DNA from: a virus
Reading direction: 5' to 3' (one strand)
Length of the DNA stretch: 10,821 nt
UHGV virus genome: UHGV-1747927
Part shown: positions 423 to 10,765 of the stretch, piece after piece
Layout of the letters: each line of letters starts with the position of its first letter
Numbering within the stretch: position 1 is the stretch's first letter
Made by a program: the position numbers and the translations under genes
The notes under the pieces: model-generated
Seen by the model: the letters and a program-made list of their open reading frames with translations, nothing else
Told to the model about the DNA's origin: nothing
The model's database searches: none

Positions 423-463
423 AAAAAAGCCACCGTTGCAACTTAAGAGTCACTAACGGCAGC
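423..463 (-). terminator. Intrinsic terminator-like hairpin plus T6 tract just downstream of the putative Q gene (tR'-like)
   Basis: Minus strand reads GCTGCCGTT, a 17-nt loop, AACGGTGGC, then TTTTTTG. The stem is about 9 bp with two G-U pairs. The flanking GCACAACAGGTAAGAGCATTGA resembles the lambda tR' region as I recall it. Confidence 0.55.
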
Positions 464-473
464 TTACCCTCTA

Positions 474-503
474 ATTATGGCTAAATGGCTAATTGCATGT
501 CAA
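474..503 (-). promoter_or_regulatory. Candidate late promoter pR' overlapping the 3' end of the putative Q gene
   Basis: Minus strand has TTGACA (503..498), an 18-nt spacer and CATAAT (479..474). It sits about 10 nt upstream of the terminator hairpin, where a Q-dependent late promoter is expected. No other sigma-70-like match lies between Q and the terminator. Confidence 0.4.
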
Positions 504-999
504 GGTTTTTAACAGCAACATGCTTAACTTTCTCAACACGTTTACGCATTTTGAAAGCATTTTGCATTGGTTGGTACAAAACAAATAATGACGCTTTCAG
601 GATGTCGTCAATTTCGTTTCTACAGGTTGCCAGTGAAGGTTTTCTCCATCCCTCGCCACCACGTCCACACATCTTGCGTGGCTTTGCAGTCGCGTGATAG
701 TAGGATGCAATTGCTCGCTTAGATGAACCATGAGCGTAGTAGCTGAGGAGGATGCCAAAGGCTTTTTTGTCAATGTACATGACGGAATCGACGACCTGAG
801 AAATCAACATTCCATCATCATCATTGCACATTGGCCTTGTCATAACTCTTCCCGGCTCTACGCTCTCCATGAACTTCGCTATTACGCTGCTCATGCGCTT
901 TTCCAGACGACCTGAATAAACCCATGCGCCCCACAGTTCAAGCCAGCCATTCAGCCACTCGTGCTGTTCTTTGGTGAGGTTTAGTTCTCTTATGCTCAT
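481..999 (-). CDS. Putative late-gene antiterminator Q-family protein (172 aa)
   Basis: ORF sits directly downstream of ninH with an ATGA overlap and directly upstream of the promoter-plus-terminator arrangement, as Q does in lambdoid phages. The assignment is by synteny; the family is not recognised from sequence alone. Confidence 0.55.
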   Translation of the reverse strand: MSIRELNLTKEQHEWLNGWLELWGAWVYSGRLEKRMSSVIAKFMESVEPGRVMTRPMCNDDDGMLISQVVDSVMYIDKKAFGILLSYYAHGSSKRAIASYYHATAKPRKMCGRGGEGWRKPSLATCRNEIDDILKASLFVLYQPMQNAFKMRKRVEKVKHVAVKNLDMQLAI

Positions 1000-1184
1000 G
1001 GCCTTCCCCTTTTGCCCTGTTTGACCATCAGGACGCCGTTAACTATTACGTGACGCTCGCCTTTGCTGTCTCGGTTGTACTTGAGCACTGTTCCTCTTGC
1101 GCAGGAAAGCATCCTCGCCACTTCGGTCTGATTGCCTCGTGTCTGGATAAGAAGCTCTGGTATCGTTTGAATTGTGGCGTTCAT
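996..1184 (-). CDS. ninH: NinH-like small DNA-binding protein (62 aa)
   Basis: The motif GNQTEVARMLSCARGTVLKY...HVIVNGVLMV matches the lambda NinH pattern as recalled. Its position immediately upstream of Q and the ATGA-coupled starts fit. Confidence 0.7.
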   Translation of the reverse strand: MNATIQTIPELLIQTRGNQTEVARMLSCARGTVLKYNRDSKGERHVIVNGVLMVKQGKRGRP

Positions 1185-1543
1185 ACGCTCTCCAGTTCGG
1201 TGATTTTTATTCCAAGCCTTCCGCCTGGTACTTTCACGCCACGAATTACGCGAATGTCATCGAATTGCTCGTCGTCTTCCGCAAATCCGGCGTGGATAAG
1301 AGAGTCGAGTAAACCTTTCAGGATGTTATCGAGGTCGCGGCGGCGGGAGTCTGGAACGTCTGCGATGACTTTGATGCGGAGTCGTGATTTGGTGAAAATG
1401 TCTAACTTGAGTTGGCGGATGATTTGCTGAACGTCTTTTCGGTATTTCTGGCCTTTATCGCTGATGTAGTATTGGCTTCCCCGTCTTCGCCAGTAGGTAT
1501 TCACCGACGGCGGGTATGGAAGCACAAACTGATATTCGTTCAT
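1181..1543 (-). CDS. rusA: RusA-family Holliday junction resolvase (120 aa)
   Basis: Length and motifs (LPYPPSVN.YW, RRRDLDN, GGRL.I.I.E) match E. coli RusA as recalled. The start overlaps the upstream stop. Confidence 0.85.
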   Translation of the reverse strand: MNEYQFVLPYPPSVNTYWRRRGSQYYISDKGQKYRKDVQQIIRQLKLDIFTKSRLRIKVIADVPDSRRRDLDNILKGLLDSLIHAGFAEDDEQFDDIRVIRGVKVPGGRLGIKITELESV

Positions 1544-1830
1544 GGCTTAATCTTTCCCTCCTTCAGCAGTATCGCCTGCGTCCTGATCACGCCTTCGAGG
1601 TGGTAAAGTCTGGCGTCTTTGTTGTCGAGGTTATGGGTGCGTCGGTCGATTTCATCGTGACACGCGCTACAAGCCCATGCACCGATCAGGTCGTCAGGCT
1701 TCATTCCCGCTCCGCAAATTCCAGCCATCCGGTAATGTGCCAGAACTGTAGTTTCAGGATTGCCATTGCATATGCCGTAAATACGTACCTGGCATTCTCT
1801 GCCGCGTGCTTCTTTGCGTAGGTTAGCCAT
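1540..1830 (-). CDS. ybcO: YbcO-like (DUF1364) Cys-rich putative nuclease (96 aa)
   Basis: RGRECQVRI.G.CNGNPETTVLAH and ACSACHDEIDRRTH motifs resemble DLP12 YbcO as recalled. It lies in the nin region beside rusA, as in DLP12. Confidence 0.65.
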   Translation of the reverse strand: MANLRKEARGRECQVRIYGICNGNPETTVLAHYRMAGICGAGMKPDDLIGAWACSACHDEIDRRTHNLDNKDARLYHLEGVIRTQAILLKEGKIKP

Positions 1831-2099
1831 TATGGTTCACTCCAGTAATTCTCAATTGCAGCAGCCATTCTCTGCATCCACTCAGCCAGCTTTAACGCGG
1901 CTTCTCTTTCAGAACCACATTTAGGGAAATCCTTCATTTCCATGCTGGCCTTATATGTTCTGAATGCCAGGTCTCCGGTAATAACCAGCTCCTGATCAAG
2001 CACAGAGCGTTTATTCCGGTGTTGAACGTAATAGACAGATTCAGTCCGCATTTCTTCTCTGTCTTTTTTGAAGGAAATAAGCTCAGAGAAATCACTCAT
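1830..2099 (-). CDS. Hypothetical nin-region protein (89 aa)
   Basis: Long ORF co-oriented with and tightly packed against its neighbours. Its start overlaps the 3' end of the upstream NinF-like ORF. No family recognised. Confidence 0.5.
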   Translation of the reverse strand: MSDFSELISFKKDREEMRTESVYYVQHRNKRSVLDQELVITGDLAFRTYKASMEMKDFPKCGSEREAALKLAEWMQRMAAAIENYWSEP

Positions 2100-2262
2100 C
2101 GTCTTCTTCCTCGTACATTGAGCTATTCGGATCGCTCATCAGCTCTGCGCAGCAGAGCTCACACACGTTAACTTCCAGCACATGCAGCTTCTGACCGCAG
2201 TTAGCGCACGTTAAAGCTCGCTCGACGCTTTCTTGTTCGTAACTTCGATTTGGGTCAATCAC
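2092..2262 (-). CDS. ninF: NinF-like zinc-ribbon protein (56 aa, GTG start)
   Basis: Not in the supplied ORF track; found by hand. The minus strand encodes (V)[55 protein letters not shown] with a CxxC...CxxCC pattern. The GTG start overlaps the ninE stop as GTGA. It resembles lambda NinF as recalled. Confidence 0.55.
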
Positions 2263-2441
2263 CTTGTTTTCCTCGCACGTTCTCTAAGCCACCGGATATC
2301 CCACAGGTGAGCCGTGTAATTGAAGGTTTTTACGTCAGATTCTTTTGGGATTGGCTTGCGTTTATTTCTGGAGCGTTTCGTTGGAAGGTATTTGCAGTTT
2401 TCGCAGATTATGTCGGTGAAACTTCGTCGCTGTCGTCTCAT
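2259..2441 (-). CDS. ninE: NinE-like protein (60 aa)
   Basis: A 60-aa basic protein directly after ninB with an ATGA overlap. It has the same size and position as lambda NinE, and the ICENCKYLP motif is recalled from NinE. Confidence 0.6.
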
Positions 2442-2848
2442 TCGTACCTCCTGTCGGTAAATCTGACACCCTGACCAATAGCCCAGGCTGTTGTGTACTC
2501 GATCAGACTTGCCATACGCTTCACGCTCATCTGCGCGCTGCTTTCGCGAATGTTGACGTATTCGCCTTCAAGGCCGGGCAAAACATCAGCTTCCTGCTTT
2601 GTAGCCACTGCATGACCGCTTATCAACAAAACCTTCCATTGTTCCGGTTTTAACCATTTTCCGCACCATTGAACCTGACGTGCGATATCCGCCAGCATCG
2701 CGTGAAATTTTGCGTTCTGGTCAAGGTTGCGCTTGTAGTCAGTAATGCGGATGGTAACTGGCTTGTCTTTATCGAGAGGAGTTGCGAGGATGGCGTTGAT
2801 TGCGGCTTGCTGTTGTTGCTTAGTTCGGAGGAATATTGTTTGCTTCAC
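2438..2848 (-). CDS. ninB: NinB-like recombination protein (136 aa)
   Basis: Pattern R.LDQN.K..A.L.D...QV.W.GKWL..E.WK is similar to lambda NinB as recalled. It is the first gene of the nin cluster. Confidence 0.75.
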
Positions 2849-2859
2849 TGAACACTCCT

Positions 2860-3051
2860 TTATTTTTTATGCCTGTAACCCCATTCTTCCAGCAACCTTG
2901 CGGCGTACCACCCAAGAAACAAAGGAAAGAACATTACAATGAGATATTCCCCGCCACGGTCAATGTTCGAAATTGACCAGATTACGATGTAACCAGTGCA
3001 GGACAGGAATATTACAAACCCCAAAAAGCTACTTCGTCGACTCATGCTCAC
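2860..3051 (-). CDS. Small predicted membrane protein (63 aa, two hydrophobic segments)
   Basis: ORF in a co-oriented packed array. It contains two hydrophobic stretches (FLGFVIFLSCTGYIVIW and YLIVMFFPLFLGWY). Confidence 0.4.
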   Translation of the reverse strand: MSMSRRSSFLGFVIFLSCTGYIVIWSISNIDRGGEYLIVMFFPLFLGWYAARLLEEWGYRHKK

Positions 3052-3368
3052 TCCTTCACTTTGATTCCAGCGGCGCAGATAGCCTCTACATCGCTTTCGT
3101 ATTGCGATTCTGCACCTGAGTCATAGCCAATGTGATAATCACCGGGAAGTGGGCCTTTCTTTGGCTTTTGCAGCTCAATCTCGATAGCTGCTCGCGATGC
3201 CTGCCATAAAGTCCACCACTCATTTAAGGAGTGACGAATATCCATGCTTGAAAATGCGAAGTACCTATCACCATTTCTTGCCTCGGTTATCATCTCGAAT
3301 GGTAATTTCAATTTTTTGGCAACGTATTCCTCAAACTTCTTTCTTGATTCGTCCATATCACTCTCCAT
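3048..3368 (-). CDS. Hypothetical protein (106 aa)
   Basis: Long ORF whose stop overlaps the next start (ATGA). It occupies the slot between the replication genes and ninB where lambda carries ren. Confidence 0.5.
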   Translation of the reverse strand: MESDMDESRKKFEEYVAKKLKLPFEMITEARNGDRYFAFSSMDIRHSLNEWWTLWQASRAAIEIELQKPKKGPLPGDYHIGYDSGAESQYESDVEAICAAGIKVKE

Positions 3369-3383
3369 CGATGATTTTTTGGG

Positions 3384-3566
3384 TTACCAATAATATTTGA
3401 TAGTCGCCATAATTATCGGTAGCAACGCGCAGACGACTGAAAACCGTAAAACAAAACCTACCCCCAATATGCGATATGCATTATCCCAGAGAACAAAACT
3501 CATCATCAGAAGGAATCCATGAAAAATCGCGACAAGAAATAAACTACAAATAAATGCATTTACCAT
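3384..3566 (-). CDS. Small predicted membrane protein (60 aa, two hydrophobic segments)
   Basis: ORF that begins just after the helicase terminator. It is strongly hydrophobic (FICSLFLVAIFHGFLLMMSFVLW and FSVVCALLPIIMATI). Confidence 0.4.
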   Translation of the reverse strand: MVNAFICSLFLVAIFHGFLLMMSFVLWDNAYRILGVGFVLRFSVVCALLPIIMATIKYYW

Positions 3567-3592
3567 CGGTACTTACCCCTCGCTCTTAATCC

Positions 3593-3623
3593 AATAAAAA
3601 AGGGCTACTGTGTAAATAGCCCC
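3593..3623 (-). terminator. Intrinsic terminator downstream of the helicase gene (tR2-like position)
   Basis: Minus strand reads GGGGCTA, a 9-nt loop, TAGCCC, then TTTTTTATT. It lies 27 nt after the helicase stop. Confidence 0.5.
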
Positions 3624-3649
3624 TGTTATTAGCTCAGTGATGTAGATGG

Positions 3650-5026
3650 TCATACGTCCGCCCCTTGTGCATATCGTCTGCCACGCGCAGCAGGTGCATT
3701 TGATGCTGTGCAAATCTGTCTGGCTTCATCCTGGTCACATGCAACAAAGTGTCCGTTGCAGAACCGCTGGTAAACCGTACCAAGTGAGCCAAAACGGTTT
3801 TTCGTCACGATGATTTCAGCAAATGGCGCGGCGCTACTGTTCTCGTCATATACCGCTTCCCGATAGAGCATGATGATTGAGTCTGCGTCCTGTTCAATGC
3901 TTCCTGAATCACGCAAATCTGCGTTTGTCGGGCGTTTGTTTGGTCGCTTCTCAACATCGCGCGAAAGCTGACTCAGGGAGATAACAGGCGTTTTCAGGTC
4001 TTTCGCCATCGCCTTCAGGCTTCCGGAGATGTGAGCAATTGCGAGGTCGTTGCGATCTGCTTTCGGCTTCTCAATCAGGCCAAGATAATCCGCCATGATG
4101 AGTGACAGGTTTGGATTTTCCTGTTTGTGCCGTTCTGCGATTGAGCGTATTTCTTCGACCGATAACCGCGAGGCATCGACTACCCATACATCCAAATCTG
4201 CAAGCTGACTCATGCCGTTAGCAACACGCGCCCAGCCTTCGTCATCCATCGATGCAGGATTTCGCAGTACGCTAACCGACATCCTCCCGGCGTTGGCAAT
4301 GCTTCGCTCTGCAATCTGCAATGCGCTCATTTCCATCGAGAAAATCAATACCCCGCGCCGGACGTCAGAACCAGGAATAACGCGGCTTGCAACGCCTTCG
4401 GCAATCTTCAGAGCCAGTTCGGTTTTCCCCATACCAGGACGAGCAGCGATTATCACCAGGTCTTCCGCGTTCATCCCTCCGGTGATGGCATCAAGTTCTT
4501 CGATTCCGGTCTTCAGGGTATCTGACTCTTCTCCGTTCCTCAGACGCCTGTCAAGCGTGTCAGTGTAGTCGGTGATGATTTCCCCTAACCGTACCGGTTT
4601 AACCTCGTCACGGGGCTTTCTGATGGCTGAAAGACGCTTTACAAGCTCATCCATCGCCTGACTCGATGCGTCGATGGTTCCGCTCTGAATTGGTTCACGC
4701 ATTTCATCCATGATTTCCAGCACCAGACGGCGGTGATAGTTATCCGCGACCATTCCGGCATATCCCTTCAGGTTTGCGGCACTCGGGCAGTTTTTGCTGG
4801 TCATCAGGATTGACGTGAAATGCTCCTCTCCGCACGCCTCGGCAACCATCAGCGCGTCGATTAGGTTTCTGTTTCTCGCCTGCTTGCGGATAACCTCGAA
4901 GGCTTTCCGGTAGAGCGGAATTGAAAACGCTTCCGGCTCCAGCGTTGCCAGAACGTCGCTGGCGGTTGGTGTTAATCCACCAATCAGCAGGCCACCGATA
5001 ACGCTCGCTTCGATATCCTGTCTCAT
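3650..5026 (-). CDS. DnaB-family replicative DNA helicase (458 aa)
   Basis: N-terminal DnaB-like motif (EASVIGGLL); Walker A (AARPGMGKT); and the DnaB C-terminal motifs [38 protein letters not shown]. The start overlaps the O stop (ATGA). Confidence 0.9.
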
Positions 5027-5844
5027 GCAATCCCCCTGTCTGCAAACTTCCCTTCCCGTACTCCAGTTAACGAATCTTCCCTCAGCAGGTAATCAAAATC
5101 AGCTGTCCAGCCCGTGTCGTTGTCTCCGAAGTAAAACGGCTTGGCCTGATGCACAAACGCCCTGACATACGCTCTGAAACCGTCCACGTTTGGCGTTTTC
5201 AGTTGCGGGATGATTTTCTTCAGGCGGCGTTTGCGTTTCTCGTTGACCGCAACAGCGTGTGGCAGTCTGTCACCGACTTCGGTGTTGTAGGCGTTCAGGA
5301 AGGATTCGTAGTCGATTCGTTCTGCCTTGCGACGTTCAGGTTTAACCTGCCCATCACCGCCCCCGTTAGGGGGTAAGGGGGTATTTGTATTTATTGTCTT
5401 TTGTATATTGTCTTTTGTGTTTAGCTGACTTGGCTTATACCCATTAGCCGACTTGGCTAATGTTTTATTAGCTGTTTTAGCTAATGTTAAGCTGTCCTGG
5501 CTAATCCACTGAGAAACCACCTTGTTCACTCCGATTTTCACGCCATCAGCAATGAGGAATTTACGCTCGATAAGCTGGCGCTTGGCAGCGCAAACATGAG
5601 TGTGATGAATACCTGTCATGGCTGCTATCTGCGTGTTTGTGAGTCGATCCATCGGCTTATTGAATCCGTATGTCTTGCGCATGATAGCGAGCATCACCTT
5701 CAACTGCCGGACGGTTAAATCAGCCATCAGCAGACTGTCGGTAATCTCGTTAGCAACGCGCATGAAACCATCTTCGGTATCTGCCACGCGATGCTCCACG
5801 ACCTCCAGTTGAGGCCTGTAATCAGCTAACTTAACGACGCCCAT
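5023..5844 (-). CDS. O: Lambda O-like replication initiator (273 aa)
   Basis: The N-terminal domain ([39 protein letters not shown]) closely resembles lambda O as recalled. The iterons and AT-rich tract lie inside the gene, as in lambda ori. Confidence 0.85.
5381..5505. repeat. Replication origin: four about 17-bp iterons with internal dyad symmetry plus an adjacent AT-rich tract, inside the O gene
   Basis: Iterons TTAGCTGACTTGGCTTA (5421-5437), TTAGCCGACTTGGCTAA (5444-5460), TTAGCTGTTTTAGCTAA (5468-5484) and TTAAGCTGTCCTGGCTAA (5488-5505) are spaced 20-24 bp apart. The AT-rich tract at 5381-5420 contains ATTGTCTTTTGT direct repeats. Confidence 0.6.
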
Positions 5845-5992
5845 GTTTCACTCCTGCTTTGGCTAGTCTGTAAACACCAACAAGGCGCTCTGCGAACGCC
5901 CTGTTATTTGCTGCGGCTACCACTAATCCCTCAGGTGAATCAGGGTGTCGAATCTCTTCTTTTTCCTGGTATTTCTTACGACGTTTTGTCAT
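5831..5992 (-). CDS. Small basic ORF (53 aa) between cII and O
   Basis: Not in the ORF track; found by hand. AGGAG lies 5 nt upstream of the ATG. It encodes [53 protein letters not shown]. The 3' end overlaps the O start by 14 nt and carries the O Shine-Dalgarno. Confidence 0.4.
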   Translation of the reverse strand: MTKRRKKYQEKEEIRHPDSPEGLVVAAANNRAFAERLVGVYRLAKAGVKHGRR

Positions 5993-6024
5993 AATTACTC
6001 CTGTGGATTGATCCAGTAATTCCC

Positions 6025-6321
6025 TCAGAATTGCATATCAATTTGCTCAGAATCCTCGGTGGCAGCCGGGGATTTTTTCTTTGTGATTCCATCCAATGCA
6101 TACTTAAAAGCCCTGCTAATCGGACTGATGTCTGATGCCATTCCGAAAGCACACAAGACCGAAGCAATAAATCTCCAGTCCGTTCTGCTTATCTTCGATT
6201 CATGACAGCCAATCATCTTTGCCAGACCGCGCTGGGTAAGCGTTGACAGGTTGATGAGTAAATCAGTTTCAGCGCGATCAATTTCTCGCTGTGTTGGCTT
6301 GCTATAACTTGCTTGTGTCAT
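6025..6321 (-). CDS. cII: cII-like transcriptional activator (98 aa)
   Basis: Positioned between cro/nutR and O as in lambda. The C-terminal region (KKKSPAATEDSEQIDMQF) resembles the lambda cII C-terminus as recalled. The rest is divergent. Confidence 0.7.
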   Translation of the reverse strand: MTQASYSKPTQREIDRAETDLLINLSTLTQRGLAKMIGCHESKISRTDWRFIASVLCAFGMASDISPISRAFKYALDGITKKKSPAATEDSEQIDMQF

Positions 6322-6405
6322 TTGTTAATTTTCCAATAGTGAATAGTTAGTTGAAAGGTATGCGTGGAAACGCATATGGCCTTAGTTGGTCAGATATCTT
6401 GGGGC

Positions 6406-6451
6406 TCGCTTTGTCAGCGACGTAGGACGAATGTCCATTGTGAAAAGAGCG
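6406..6451 (-). promoter_or_regulatory. nutR-like site: boxA-like CGCTCTTTT and boxB hairpin UCGCU-GACAA-AGCGA
   Basis: Minus strand just after the cro stop. boxA-like at 6451..6443, boxB at 6420..6406 with a 5-bp stem and GACAA pentaloop. The boxA-boxB spacer is 22 nt, longer than in lambda. Confidence 0.5.
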
Positions 6452-6458
6452 GTGTTAC

Positions 6459-6659
6459 TTATGCAGTTGTTTTTTTGTTACTTGGGAAGGGCTTTATTTC
6501 TTCCGCATAAACGCTTCCATCAGCGTTTATAGTTAAAAAAATCTTTCGGCCTGCATGAATGGCCTTGTTAATCGCGCTTTGATATACGCCGAGATCTTTA
6601 GCCGTCTTGGTTTGCCCAAAGCGTATTGCATAATCTTTCAGGGTTATGCGTTGTTCCAT
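6459..6659 (-). CDS. cro: Cro repressor (66 aa), lambda-type
   Basis: The protein ([11 protein letters not shown]...[40 protein letters not shown] pattern) matches lambda Cro as recalled. It is divergent from cI across the OR operators. Confidence 0.9.
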
Positions 6660-6685
6660 ACAACCTCCTTAGTACAGGCAACCAT

Positions 6686-6753
6686 TATCACCGCTAGAGG
6701 TAAAATAGTCAACACGCACGGTGTTAGAAGTTTATCCCTTGCGGTGATAGATT
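6686..6753. promoter_or_regulatory. OR1-OR2-OR3 operators with divergent promoters pR (toward cro) and pRM (toward cI)
   Basis: OR1 is TATCACCGCTAGAGGTA (6686-6702), OR2 CAACACGCACGGTGTTA (6710-6726), OR3 TATCCCTTGCGGTGATA (6733-6749). pR -35 is TTGACT (6712..6707) and -10 GATAAT (6689..6684) on the minus strand. pRM -10 is TAGATT (6748-6753) with the cI ATG 7 nt downstream (leaderless, as in lambda). Confidence 0.85.
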
Positions 6754-6756
6754 TAA

Positions 6757-7473
<717 letters not shown>

Positions 7474-7504
7474 TTGTTTTATTTTTCACGTAATAGGATG
7501 ATTT

Positions 7505-7846
7505 ATGACACAATTTCAACTTGCATTAATCGCTAGAGAAGTTGATGGAGAAGTCATCCATCTTCGCACCAAAGACGGATACATCAATGCCACCGCGATG
7601 TGCAAGTCTGCGGGGAAGCTACTTGCTGACTATACACGACTAAAAACAACACAAGATTTTTTTGATGAATTATCACGCGATATGGGGATTCCCATATCGG
7701 AGTTAATTCAATCATTTAAAGGCGGAAGAGCAGAGAATCAAGGGACTTGGGTTCATCCAGACATCGCAATTAATTTAGCTCAGTGGCTATCTCCAAAATT
7801 TGCAGTGCAAGTATCGAGATGGGTGCGTGAGTGGATGTCAGGTTAA
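7505..7846 (+). CDS. KilA-N domain protein (113 aa) in the rexAB position
   Basis: KilA-N/Bro-N-like motifs (INATAMCKSAGK, GTWVHPDIAINLAQWLSPKFAVQVSRWV). AGGA lies 6 nt upstream of the ATG. It starts 31 nt after the cI stop on the same strand. Confidence 0.7.
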   Translation: MTQFQLALIAREVDGEVIHLRTKDGYINATAMCKSAGKLLADYTRLKTTQDFFDELSRDMGIPISELIQSFKGGRAENQGTWVHPDIAINLAQWLSPKFAVQVSRWVREWMSG

Positions 7847-7885
7847 AGAGCGCCTGCCGAACTCCCTATCCACCTTAAGCGGTAT

Positions 7886-8264
7886 ATGACAAACCGAGGC
7901 AGAGTTCCTCATACGCACTTTTCTATGCTTAATGAACTGACGTTTAACTTGGTTGCGCCACTTGAACAGGCCGGATATACGCTGCCAGAAAAAATGGTCC
8001 CTGATATTTCAGAGGGTAGGGTTTTCTCGCAATGGCTCCGTGACAACCGGGGGGTTGAGCCGAAGACATTCCCAACATATAACCATGAGTACCCAGATGG
8101 CCGGACATTCCCGGTACGTCTATACCCAAACGAATATTGCAGATTTCAAACAATACTTCAACGAAGTGTGGCTGCCTCAGTACGCTCCTAAATATTTTGC
8201 TGAACGAGACCAAAGGGCATTGACGTTGATTGAGAAAATCATGCTACCTGACCTTGATTCCTAA
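7886..8264 (+). pseudogene. Downstream ORF with apparent +1 frameshift (frames 7886-8191 and 7953-8264), in frame with KilA-N across a single TAA
   Basis: The 7886 frame looks protein-like up to about 8130 (...RTFPVRLYPNEY). The +1 frame looks protein-like only from about 8130 (ADFKQYFNEVWLPQYAPKYFAERDQRALTLIEKIMLPDLDS) and ends 8 nt before a terminator. The 7886 frame is the KilA-N frame and only one stop (7844-7846) separates them. Confidence 0.4.
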
Positions 8265-8272
8265 ATGTTATT

Positions 8273-8299
8273 CCCGGCCACAGAGCCGGGTTTTCTTTG
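8273..8299 (+). terminator. Intrinsic terminator ending the cI-KilA-N transcription unit
   Basis: CCCGGC, loop CACAGA, GCCGGG, followed by TTTTCTTTG. It lies directly after the stop at 8262-8264. Confidence 0.6.
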
Positions 8300-8335
8300 C
8301 CTCACGATCCCCCTCACCCAAGAACACATAACCAA

Positions 8336-8365
8336 TTGTATCTATTTGAAAATAAATAGATACAA
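8336..8365. repeat. Perfect 12-bp-arm palindrome with 6-nt spacer (TTGTATCTATTT GAAAAT AAATAGATACAA)
   Basis: Read directly from the sequence. It lies in the AT-rich intergenic region between the terminator and OL3. Confidence 0.5.
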
Positions 8366-8450
8366 CTCACTAAACATAGCAGTTCAGATCTCTCACCTAC
8401 CAAACAATGCACCCCTGCAAAAAATAAATTCATATAAAAAACATACAGAT

Positions 8451-8513
8451 AACCATCTGCGGTGATGAATTATCTCTAGCGGTGTTGACATAAATACCAC
8501 TGGCGGTGATACT
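8451..8513 (+). promoter_or_regulatory. pL promoter with OL3-OL2-OL1 operators
   Basis: OL3 is AACCATCTGCGGTGATG (8451-8467), OL2 TATCTCTAGCGGTGTTG (8471-8487), OL1 TACCACTGGCGGTGATA (8495-8511). -35 TTGACA (8485-8490), 17-bp spacer, -10 GATACT (8508-8513). Nearly identical to lambda pL as recalled. Confidence 0.85.
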
Positions 8514-8581
8514 AAACACATCAGCAGGACGCACTACTCACCAGGGCGGTGAATATACAACGATTCAAATATGAATCTACG

Positions 8582-8596
8582 GCGCTGACAAAGCGC
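8582..8596 (+). promoter_or_regulatory. nutL boxB hairpin GCGCU-GACAA-AGCGC
   Basis: A 5-bp GC-rich stem with GACAA pentaloop about 60 nt downstream of the pL start. The same loop occurs in the nutR boxB. It matches the P22 boxB-left sequence as I recall it. No clear boxA was seen upstream. Confidence 0.5.
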
Positions 8597-8608
8597 AATA
8601 ACCAAAGT

Positions 8609-8710
8609 GAACTTTGGGGTGAATGCAGAAGCTAACCTTCTCGGCGGAGGCGCTTTGCAATGATTACGCTACCGGAGTTAGTCGCCCGGCTGTATTCACC
8701 GCCAAAGTTC
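8609..8710 (+). promoter_or_regulatory. Long-range leader stem enclosing about 70 nt upstream of N1 (candidate RNase III processing or translation-control structure)
   Basis: GAACTTTGGGGTGAAT (8609-8624) pairs with ATTCACCGCCAAAGTTC (8694-8710) with one bulge. The 3' arm ends 4 nt before the N1 Shine-Dalgarno (AGGAGG). The analogous stem before N2 carries compensatory changes. Confidence 0.45.
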
Positions 8711-8724
8711 ACCAGGAGGTCTAT

Positions 8725-9108
8725 ATGACACGCAGAACTCAGTTCAAAGGCAATTCACGTTCTCGTCGTCGTGAGCGTTTAAAGGCAAAGGCATTAGCTA
8801 ACGGCGTACTGGCCCGCGAAGAAGCAATAAGTTCAGAAGTATTACACCGCCCTACTCTAAGCAGAGCGCAGATTCAGGCTAAAGGTACTCACGAAACGCC
8901 TGAGCGCATAGAAGACGCTAAGCCAATTAAGTTCATGGCACAGGACGTGATCTGGCAACAGAAAGAATACAGACGCAATCTGGAGAGAGCGGCCATTGTG
9001 TACGCGAATGAGTTTGGACATAAGCAACCAGAAACTGGTGTATGTCTTCCAAATGTAGCTCTTTACGCAGCAGGATACCGGAAATCAAAACAACTGACGG
9101 CGAGATGA
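8725..9108 (+). CDS. N: N-like transcription antiterminator N1 (128 aa from the Shine-Dalgarno-supported ATG)
   Basis: First gene after pL and nutL. AGGAGG lies 6 nt upstream of the ATG at 8725. The N-terminal arginine-rich motif (KGNSRSRRRERLKAKALANG) resembles the P22-type ARM as recalled. The track start at 8623 would lie inside the leader stem and lacks a Shine-Dalgarno. Confidence 0.7.
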   Translation: MTRRTQFKGNSRSRRRERLKAKALANGVLAREEAISSEVLHRPTLSRAQIQAKGTHETPERIEDAKPIKFMAQDVIWQQKEYRRNLERAAIVYANEFGHKQPETGVCLPNVALYAAGYRKSKQLTAR

Positions 9109-9158
9109 CTTGTGTTGGTCGCCAGAAAATGAAATTAGGCAGCAAACCACTTATTTGA
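9105..9158 (+). other. 17-codon mini-ORF or fossil encoding a lambda-N-like C-terminus (MTCVGRQKMKLGSKPLI), -1 frame relative to N1
   Basis: Its ATG overlaps the N1 stop as ATGA. The peptide resembles the lambda N C-terminus (..ITCSGRQKIKGKSIPLI) as recalled. It is not in the N1 reading frame. Confidence 0.3.
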
Positions 9159-9166
9159 GGTGAGAT

Positions 9167-9637
9167 ATGACAAAATCATGGAGCGTACCTTTTCCTGAAT
9201 CAGAAACTGAACATGATGGAATGCCTGTTTTCTGGAGATTCCAAGCGACAGTTGAAGAAGATGGAATCAAAATATTCGCACTTCAATATATAGCTTTTCA
9301 TCAGACAGAGCATTATGCATGGTTGGTTCCTGCGCATTGGATTGTTAATTTTAAACCAGCACCAAATCAGTGGTTACAGGAATGGAAACAAAAGAGAAAT
9401 AGATATGCAATTAAGAAAGTAGCAAAAAATGCAGAAAGATCTTTTGCATTCCCAACGAAGAAACTTGCCATTGAGAGTTTATTGCGCCGGAAGAAATACC
9501 ATTTAATGAGAATCAAACAAGATTTGGCTGTTGTATCAACTCTTGTTGATGGGATGAAGAATATTGATACATCAACACCAGATATTGAATATAACTTTGG
9601 ACACAACCAAGAAACAGAAAATTGGGTATTCTACTAG
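9167..9637 (+). CDS. Hypothetical basic protein (156 aa), AT-rich cassette gene 1
   Basis: GAGGTG lies 5 nt upstream of the ATG. The composition is visibly AT-rich relative to the flanks and the C-terminal half is lysine/arginine-rich. No family recognised. Confidence 0.6.
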   Translation: MTKSWSVPFPESETEHDGMPVFWRFQATVEEDGIKIFALQYIAFHQTEHYAWLVPAHWIVNFKPAPNQWLQEWKQKRNRYAIKKVAKNAERSFAFPTKKLAIESLLRRKKYHLMRIKQDLAVVSTLVDGMKNIDTSTPDIEYNFGHNQETENWVFY

Positions 9638-9683
9638 GGCGCATAGCCGACTTTATTTTTGGCATAAACAATATGGGGTAAAA

Positions 9684-10010
9684 ATGAAAGTTTTAATGGT
9701 TTATGAAAATGTTCCAGAGTCGACTGAAATCTATATTTTTGATGCCAATGAAGATGAAGTTAACGATTTGAAATTGTCTCACGGAAATTACACAAATGCT
9801 AATTGTGATGAAAGTATCGAAAAAGCACTATCACGAGTTCTTGTCAGAATCAGTGATCCAGAACATTGTGATGATGATTGGCTTTCTTATTGTGAATCGG
9901 TAAAAACTGATGCAGGAAAATGGAGTAAAAGTAAAGTTGATAACTCAACCCCAATCATTATGAAAGATAGTGATATTGAAATGGTAATAATAACCGGAAT
10001 GATTATGTAG
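9684..10010 (+). CDS. Hypothetical acidic protein (108 aa), AT-rich cassette gene 2
   Basis: ATG at 9684 is preceded by GGGG. The track start at 9564 would overlap the upstream gene. The protein is Asp/Glu-rich and AT-rich. No family recognised. Confidence 0.5.
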   Translation: MKVLMVYENVPESTEIYIFDANEDEVNDLKLSHGNYTNANCDESIEKALSRVLVRISDPEHCDDDWLSYCESVKTDAGKWSKSKVDNSTPIIMKDSDIEMVIITGMIM

Positions 10011-10026
10011 GCTGCGAATAAGCACT

Positions 10027-10054
10027 GTGTATTCATTCCGACGAGTGAATACAC
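10027..10054. repeat. Perfect 9-bp-arm inverted repeat (GTGTATTCA, 10-nt spacer, TGAATACAC) 17 nt after the cassette stop
   Basis: Read directly. No U-tract follows on either strand, so it is not a canonical intrinsic terminator. Confidence 0.4.
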
Positions 10055-10400
10055 GGAGCAATGTCGCTCGTAACTAAACAGGAGCCGACTTGTTCTGATT
10101 ATTGGAAATCTTCTTTGCCATCCGAAATGCGGGAACTGAGTTTAACCAAACAGGAGGTGCCGTAATGGTGCACTAACGCGGTTAGACCGCAGCCGAAAGG
10201 CAATGCAGCAGTAATGATGCTGCCCCGAGTCGCGTAATGGCGAGCAGGTTTAGCAGACCGATGTGAGGGTAAATAAGGGAACATGCTCCGGAAAGGCAGC
10301 GCGAATGCCAGACGCGCACCGGTTATCAGCGGCTAATAAGCGACAGAGACTCAAGGGCATGAGCGCGCTCACTGCGAGAGTGTGAGTCAAAGAGTAGTTG

Positions 10401-10475
10401 GCTTTGGGGTGACGTGAAGTGCAGCTGCACGACGGCAACCGGAAGATAAGCACCCGGCGCGTCACCGCCAAAGTC
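10401..10475 (+). promoter_or_regulatory. Leader stem upstream of N2, analogous to the N1 leader stem
   Basis: GCTTTGGGGTGACG (10401-10414) pairs with CGTCACCGCCAAAGTC (10460-10475). The arms are the same as in the N1 stem except AAT/ATT is replaced by ACG/CGT, which preserves pairing. It is followed by the Shine-Dalgarno GGAGG and the ATG at 10493. Confidence 0.4.
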
Positions 10476-10492
10476 AATCATCGGAGGTCAAC

Positions 10493-10765
10493 ATGACAGT
10501 AGTCATTACTTATCTGGCTGACGATAACGCCAGAAATCGCCGCAGAGCACGCAGACAGGCTCAACGTGAACAGGCAATGCAAGAGCAGCGACTGGCGCGA
10601 AAAATTGCGCTGAAGCTCTCTGGTTGCGTCAGAGCAGATAAAGCAGCATCACTCGGAAGCCTTCGCTGCAAGAAGGCAGATGAATGCAGTGGAAGTATTT
10701 GCCTGCCAAACGTAGCCATTTACGCGGCAGGCTACCGGAAATCAAAACAACTGACAGCGAGGTAA
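10493..10765 (+). CDS. Second N-like protein N2 (90 aa) with a lambda-like arginine-rich motif and the same 21-aa C-terminal tail as N1
   Basis: GGAGG lies 6 nt upstream. The N-terminal ARM (NARNRRRARRQAQREQ) resembles the lambda N ARM (QTRRRERRAEKQAQ) as recalled. The C-terminal CLPNVAIYAAGYRKSKQLTAR is shared with N1. Confidence 0.6.
   Translation: MTVVITYLADDNARNRRRARRQAQREQAMQEQRLARKIALKLSGCVRADKAASLGSLRCKKADECSGSICLPNVAIYAAGYRKSKQLTAR

Follow-up and report, generated by a model that had tools for sequence, protein, structure and literature searches.

A probable Q21-type late-gene control cassette at the end of the Q gene of a lambdoid phage genome

The end of the Q gene in the UHGV virus genome UHGV-1747927 very probably forms the late-gene control cassette of a lambdoid phage of the Q21 type. 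A Q protein of the PF06530 family, a sigma-70 promoter at the end of its gene, repeats with an 8-bp period, a pause element, and a terminator are all present. We conclude that this switch is real, functional-looking, and of a kind that is already known. The DNA analyzed is a single stretch of 10,821 nucleotides (referred to as the window), and its features described below lie on the minus strand unless stated otherwise. The reference for phage 21 is its complete genome record OL657228 (referred to as locus L004), which cites PMID 1704887, 31455742, and 31663818.

The Q gene (481-999) encodes a 172-aa late antiterminator of the Q21 family, as assigned by its ORF and translation, Pfam, and PDB, and ends with the stop codon TAG at 483-481. 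The protein matches PF06530 (Phage_antitermQ), a family with a sigma-R4-like fold, at 1.1e-25, and the Pfam search gave no match to the lambda-Q family, PF03589. Lambda Q belongs to this second, unrelated family, and Pfam treats both Q21 and Q82 as the single family PF06530 (10.1101/651190). Because PF06530 is common to Q21 and Q82, the decisive typing evidence is the PDB match, together with the DNA alignment: the protein matches the Q21 chains 6jnx and 6p18 with an E-value of ~1e-91 over residues 1-162. An earlier note on this DNA had suggested that Q might be of a type other than lambda, with another site geometry, and proposed that Q be classified by HMM. Both points are borne out, as the PF06530 match, the Q21 chains at ~1e-91, and a layout that follows phage 21 base for base place this Q in the 21 type, with the reservation that PF06530 alone spans Q21 and Q82.

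In the alignment to the PDB chains, residues 1-101 are nearly identical to Q21, and residues 102-162 are diverged. Residues S93, K94, H95, R113, A124, T125, R127, and R128 of Q21 contact its Q-binding element (QBE) (PMC6606751). The window Q keeps S93, K94, R113, A124, T125, and R127, and replaces H95 by R and R128 by N. It also extends 10 residues beyond the end of Q21, with the sequence VKNLDMQLAI. The codons of this extension (481-510) run across the -35 element and the Q-binding repeats, with CTT GAC ATG reading through the -35 and the final ATT TAG falling inside the downstream repeat. As the extension is encoded by the promoter and its repeats, protein and promoter constrain each other. 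The extension follows a KVKHVA motif, and the corresponding C-terminal residues of Q21 touch RNA polymerase in the loading complex (10.1101/651190).

The predicted late promoter, pR', consists of a -35 TTGACA inside Q codons (498-503) and a -10 CATAAT (474-479) with a spacer of 18 bp, and matches the sigma-70 consensus at 11 of 12 positions. Both hexamers come from the promoter scan and are the same in 79/79 related loci; the -35 is further supported by the alignment to phage 21, and the -10 by its phage 21 spacing to the pause element. CATAAT lies one base past the Q stop codon, and its first base also belongs to the downstream repeat. The placement given in the earlier note, with the -35 inside the last Q codons and the -10 just past the stop, agrees with the coordinates (503-498 and 479-474, around a stop at 483-481), as does its description of the site as the sole sigma-70-like match, since no other site with at least 11/12 matches occurs on either strand of the 10.8-kb window. 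By itself, a match of this quality is only modestly unlikely: dinucleotide shuffles of the window contain a mean of 0.16 sites with at least 11/12 matches, and 11.5% of the shuffles contain at least one. Based on alignment to the annotated phage 21 start (L004 2031), late transcription is predicted to start at G467, 7 nt past the -10 and directly ahead of the pause element.

Between the -35 and the -10 is a predicted Q-binding element (479-494), identified by alignment to the phage 21 QBE and by comparison with the phage L QBE. It consists of two direct 8-bp repeats, AATTAGCC (494-487) and ATTTAGCC (486-479), both with the hexamer core TTAGCC, and the Q stop codon falls within the downstream one. 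Q is predicted to bind these TTAGCC repeats, which align column for column with the phage 21 QBE, ATTGAGCA/AATGAGCA, as annotated in OL657228. Their cores differ from those of phage 21 at positions 2 and 6, i.e., at 2 of 6 positions in both repeats. Further downstream, the -10-like hexamer TAAGCT (461-466, +2 to +7) is identical to the sigma-dependent pause element of phage 21 (L004 2032-2038), and also contributes to the 5' arm of the terminator hairpin. By analogy with phage 21, RNA polymerase would be expected to pause at this element.

The pause element leads directly into a tR'-type intrinsic terminator (419-465), assigned by its fold, by the phage 21 terminator (L004 2033-2080; PMID 1704887), and by the annotation of HK75 and Sf6. 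Its hairpin (465-427) has a core from G463 to C429 with a 1-nt bulge and a 4-nt loop, and is followed by T6 at 428-423, a G, and TTT. The 49-nt RNA from 467 to 419 is predicted to form only this hairpin (-20.2 kcal/mol, z = -4.43), with a stability that 0/200 shuffles reached. Counted from G467, the hairpin occupies +3 to +41, with the stem ending at +39 and the 3' arm at +29 to +41, and the terminated RNA is predicted to be ~46 nt long. The terminator is thus found close behind the promoter, as claimed earlier, and the terminated RNA is indeed short; its length was put at ~40 nt, and the alignment to phage 21 with a start at G467 gives ~46 nt instead. A simple terminator scan did not report the hairpin at 465-427, probably due to the 1-nt bulge in the stem. 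No family came up when the whole window was scanned against Rfam at the gathering threshold, which places the short leader RNA outside the curated RNA families.

The annotated elements of phage 21 follow one another in the same way. According to OL657228, its Q ends at L004 1989, the -35 is at L004 1996-2001, the QBE at L004 2004-2019, the -10 at L004 2019-2024, the late transcription start at L004 2031, the sigma-dependent pause element at L004 2032-2038, and the terminator at L004 2033-2080 (+3 to +50). Starting at TAAGCT and through the final base of the terminator stem, the window has the same sequence as phage 21. The two have in common the -35 TTGACA, repeats of 8-bp period between -35 and -10, the distance from the -10 to the pause element, and the same terminator hairpin, hence the same ~46-nt terminated RNA, where the size for phage 21 is based on the GenBank annotation. 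They differ in the repeat cores (TGAGCA in phage 21, TTAGCC in the window), in the spacer (17 bp in phage 21 and 18 in the window, which has one base more from the -35 to the pause element), and in the -10, which is AACACT in phage 21 and closer to consensus in the window. The phage 21 Q stops 6 nt ahead of the -35, whereas the window Q is 10 residues longer and overlaps the -35 and the repeats. Finally, the terminator of phage 21 is followed by genes for tRNA-Asn and tRNA-Thr, and that of the window by a lambda-like leader. With its terminator at +3 to +50, phage 21 indicates that the compact layout is the canonical Q21 design and not the result of a deletion.

The mechanism worked out for phage 21 most likely applies to this locus. 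In structures of Q21, a pair of protomers sits on the direct repeats, a ring occupies the RNA exit channel, and the RNA passes through this ring (10.1101/651190; PMC6606751), and the Q21-engaged complex is arrested at +14, after 20 nt of RNA (PMC6606751). In the window, sigma-70 RNA polymerase would initiate at pR', at about G467, and sigma region 2 would re-bind the -10-like TAAGCT at +2 to +7, so that the polymerase would pause after a short RNA. In the absence of Q, the hairpin at +3 to +41 would form and transcription would stop in the U-tract, releasing the ~46-nt RNA and leaving the lysis and virion genes off. When Q is present, two protomers would occupy the direct repeats (494-479) between the -35 and the -10, and engage the polymerase, which sigma region 2 would be holding at the -10-like element. 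A ring, or "nozzle", of the upstream protomer would then enter the channel through which RNA leaves the paused polymerase, and the 5' end of the RNA would thread through this ring. With the ring in the channel, no hairpin would form there, resulting in read-through of tR' and of later terminators. As Q would load when the RNA is shorter than ~20 nt, ahead of the 3' arm of the hairpin (+29 onward), a terminator this near the start is workable, and the short leader fits the Q21 loading mechanism. That the window Q acts as an antiterminator in this way is transferred from the phage 21 work.

Over its first 1,020 nt, the window shares 98% identity with CUS-3, and the Q proteins of L/ST64T, Sf6, HK75, and CUS-3 are 97.7-98.8% identical to that of the window (phage L, 97.7%). 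All of these phages have the same -35, -10, downstream repeat, pause element, and terminator. The upstream repeat core is TTAGCC in the window and Sf6, and TTATCC in L, HK75, and CUS-3. After the terminator, Sf6 and L carry tRNA genes, whereas the window, CUS-3, and HK75 carry the lambda-like leader. HK629 shares the Q allele, -35, repeats, and -10, and has a pause-like TATGCT at the same position; its leader differs, however, and is of the HK629/Hafnia yong1 type, with the terminator stem ending at +53 and an RNA of ~60 nt.

The region is therefore known already, contrary to the novelty that the earlier note implied: the HK75 record has pR' and tR' annotated at exactly homologous positions, and the Sf6 record describes a promoter "nearly identical to phage 21 late promoter", together with a qut site and tR'. 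The variant repeats have been discussed for phage L, in which AATTATCC/ATTTAGCC replace the phage 21 QBE as the likely QBE, with the late start placed nearby (PMC8022706). The same study noted that the divergence between the Q proteins of L and 21 is located in the DNA-contacting C-terminal part, and expected a different specificity (PMC8022706).

A search of IMG/VR confirmed 598 matches with the same Q allele, and among its carriers are phages of E. coli, Shigella, and Salmonella, both P22-like and lambda-like. In the 79 IMG/VR loci of this allele used to examine conservation (among L006-L085), the -35, the -10, and the downstream repeat are invariant, and the pause element is TAAGCT in 62/79 and TATGCT in 16/79. 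Variation in the control region is mostly limited to the 7 nt that separate the -10 from the pause element and to the length of the T-tract. Such invariance across 79 loci argues against a chance arrangement.

Downstream of the terminator, the window turns lambda-like. The homology detected by blastn begins in the terminator T-tract, where 428-397 matches lambda 44776-44807 at 29/32 bases as the start of a lambda-like late leader, and it resumes at 134-1, which matches lambda 44936-45069 at 91% as the late leader upstream of the holin gene. The ~260 nt between the two pieces have no blastn match in lambda, and so the resemblance to the lambda late leader claimed earlier, from the terminator onward, holds at both ends and fails in the middle. 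Lambda 44776-44807 should lie at or just after tR', which has no annotation in the lambda record. The window ends ahead of gene S, and the holin gene of CUS-3 starts ~117 nt past the window end.

In the unmatched stretch (135-395), no ORF was convincing, Rfam gave no match, and the predicted fold was not unusual (z = +0.25). Full-length copies are found only in CUS-3 and Huey (100%), and an 85% copy in IME10. A tRNA scan of the window found none, while phage 21, Sf6, and S135 have tRNA-Asn and tRNA-Thr right behind the homologous terminator, and phage L likewise has two tRNA genes after it (PMC8022706). At the position of 135-395, phage 21 and Sf6 thus have tRNA genes, and HK629 an HNH endonuclease gene, so that this position in the late leader looks like an insertion hot spot. 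Among the 79 loci with the same Q allele, the downstream flank is lambda-like in 39 and carries phage-21-like tRNA genes in 33, and both kinds join at the T-tract. The leader module directly after CATAAT is of the 21 type in 62/79 and of the HK629 type in 16/79. The joints at the T-tract and at CATAAT are thus mosaic junctions, located exactly at the borders of functional elements, and the CUS-3 record labels one such junction as "boundary sequence".

Mosaicism is also apparent in the rest of the window, where 995-10684 is a mosaic lambdoid early-right region; ~60% of it matches HK97 at 97% identity, with the cI, O, P, roi, and nin genes in the matching part. Unlike this HK97-like remainder, the segment with Q and the late control matches CUS-3/Sf6-type phages. 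Within Q, on the plus strand and antisense to the gene, positions 674-706 contain a CII-type site, TTGCGTGGCTTTGC (TTGC-N6-TTGC, 674-687), and a -10-like TAGGAT (701-706). This region aligns with the phage 21 paQ antisense promoter and CII site inside Q (L004 1794-1826), suggesting that CII-activated antisense control of Q is probably kept in the window.

Lambda itself uses the same logic in its pR'-qut-tR' region: the promoter behind Q is constitutive, Q acts at a site located between the -35 and the -10, a sigma-dependent pause occurs close to the promoter, and Q overrides the terminator. The downstream leader of lambda is partly homologous to that of the window. Its terminated RNA is ~194 nt, and it requires an additional -35-like element. 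Its pR' starts at ~44587, with the ~194-nt 6S RNA as the product. The window could accordingly be read as a lambda-type late region that lost most of the 6S leader, so that tR' was brought near pR', a possibility already raised in the earlier note. The lambda homology that starts at the terminator T-tract (29/32 bases) and resumes near the window end is what this reading has in its favor. Yet the Q of the window is a PF06530 protein that matches the Q21 chains, with a predicted terminated RNA of ~46 nt, and neither a PF03589 Q nor a leader of ~194 nt was found. The promoter, repeats, pause element, and hairpin match phage 21 and not lambda, and neither the hairpin nor the pause element aligns to lambda tR' or qut; the reading was rejected. 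Moreover, the terminator of phage 21 itself is equally close to the start, and the lambda homology begins only past the hairpin, at the mosaic junction in the T-tract, where other phages carry phage-21-like tRNA genes. A deletion from a lambda-type region is thus extremely improbable.

It is also conceivable that the hairpin is simply the terminator of the early-right operon after Q, that the promoter match is a by-product of Q coding, and that late transcription starts elsewhere. The -35 and the upstream repeat do lie in coding sequence, where conservation could partly reflect constraint on the protein; an 11/12 match turns up in about one shuffle in nine; and the annotators of HK629 marked a "putative pR'" ~150 nt further downstream. 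However, CATAAT and the pause element are non-coding and (nearly) invariant while the 7 nt between them vary, the spacing of the elements is also kept where Q ends ahead of the -35, as in phage 21 and other relatives, and the phage 21 start is annotated at the homologous position. On these three grounds the reading was rejected, and we regard a fortuitous promoter as very unlikely. A role of the hairpin in ending read-through from pR could coexist with its role in the Q21-type switch.

The Q21-type switch was further compared across ~65 loci of diverse Enterobacterales and phages, comprising 54 loci from one-genome-per-species bacterial assemblies (L096-L149) and the phage loci L001-L004, L086-L091, and L093-L095. 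L142 (mis-parsed), L137 (ambiguous), and five loci with 29-bp spacing that were one base off were judged by eye or set aside. In all interpretable loci, the -35 is at or over the stop codon of Q, and with it come a pair of hexamers with a period of 8 bp, a -10, and TAnnnT at fixed spacing, although the recurrence of TAnnnT is partly built in, as this pattern and its spacing were search criteria. In many members of the Q21 family, as seen from negative offsets in the survey, the -35 is located within Q or over its stop codon. The end of the first terminator stem is at +38 to +41 in 22/65 loci and at ~+51 to +69 in most others, and the median predicted terminated RNA is 68 nt over the 65 loci, which makes short leaders a trait of the Q21 family. 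In five loci from Proteus, Morganella, and a Salmonella phage (L089, L123-L125, and L132), the terminator with a U-tract is further downstream, with the stem ending at ~+62 to +65. By eye, these keep the first hairpin segment (e.g., GTGACTCTTAAGT) after the pause element without a U-tract, which may hint at a second role of this segment, e.g., in pausing or RNA folding.

Across this survey, residues of Q (in Q21 numbering) vary together with positions of the hexamer in the downstream repeat. Residue 128 tracks position 2, with R accompanying G and N or K accompanying T in every interpretable locus. Position 6 goes with residue 95, where R occurs mostly with C, and H, Y, L, and I with A, and residue 124 tracks position 3, where R occurs with G. 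The hexamer is TGAGCA when R128 is combined with H, Y, L, or I at 95, TGAGCC with R95 and R128, TTAGCC with R95 and N128 (as in the window), TTAGCA with L or H at 95 and N128, and TGG(A/C)CA with R124 and R128. All four combinations of positions 2 and 6 are thus seen (TGAGCA, TGAGCC, TTAGCC, and TTAGCA), and with TGGACA, TTGGCA, and TTACCC the survey contains at least six repeat classes. One exception to the association was found, in L099, which pairs R95 with TGAGCA. The counts represent loci and not independent evolutionary events, and the association is inflated by shared ancestry. From this pattern, we consider it an even chance that the Q21 family follows a simple combinatorial recognition code, with the window as one of several orthogonal specificity classes.

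For the window, the features that make up the DNA specificity of Q21 (TGAGCA repeats read by H95, A124, R127, and R128) were not all found. The TTAGCC repeats in place of TGAGCA, together with the H95R and R128N replacements, make it probable that this Q allele reads its own site and not that of phage 21. The region is a member of the Q21 family but probably represents a separate specificity class, in line with the proposal for phage L. If the repeat differences were functionally neutral, the window Q would be interchangeable with Q21, which is compatible with the almost identical N-terminal 101 residues, including the ring that contacts RNA polymerase, with the pause element and terminator identical to those of phage 21, and with L099, in which the pairing of R95 with TGAGCA means that residue 95 is not a strict determinant. 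We nevertheless find interchangeability rather unlikely, given that both repeats are altered alike, that the base-contacting H95 and R128 (PMC6606751) are both replaced, that residue 128 tracks repeat position 2 throughout the interpretable loci, and that a different specificity was expected in PMC8022706.

The value of this analysis is mainly a correct annotation of the region, in which the late promoter, the Q-binding site, the pause signal, and the terminator are now located, and the very short leader is recognized as the normal Q21-type design and not as damage. The Q allele of the window and a phage-21-type Q probably do not cross-talk. Since phage-21-type Q is present in certain Stx2/Stx2c-converting phages, the absence of such cross-talk could matter for the induction of co-resident prophages. 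With the specificity difference of phage L anticipated in PMC8022706, only the family-wide code would be new. If it is true, the Q21-type switches of prophages residing in one cell would each be shielded from the Q of the others, and pairs of Q and QBE would be open to rational redesign.
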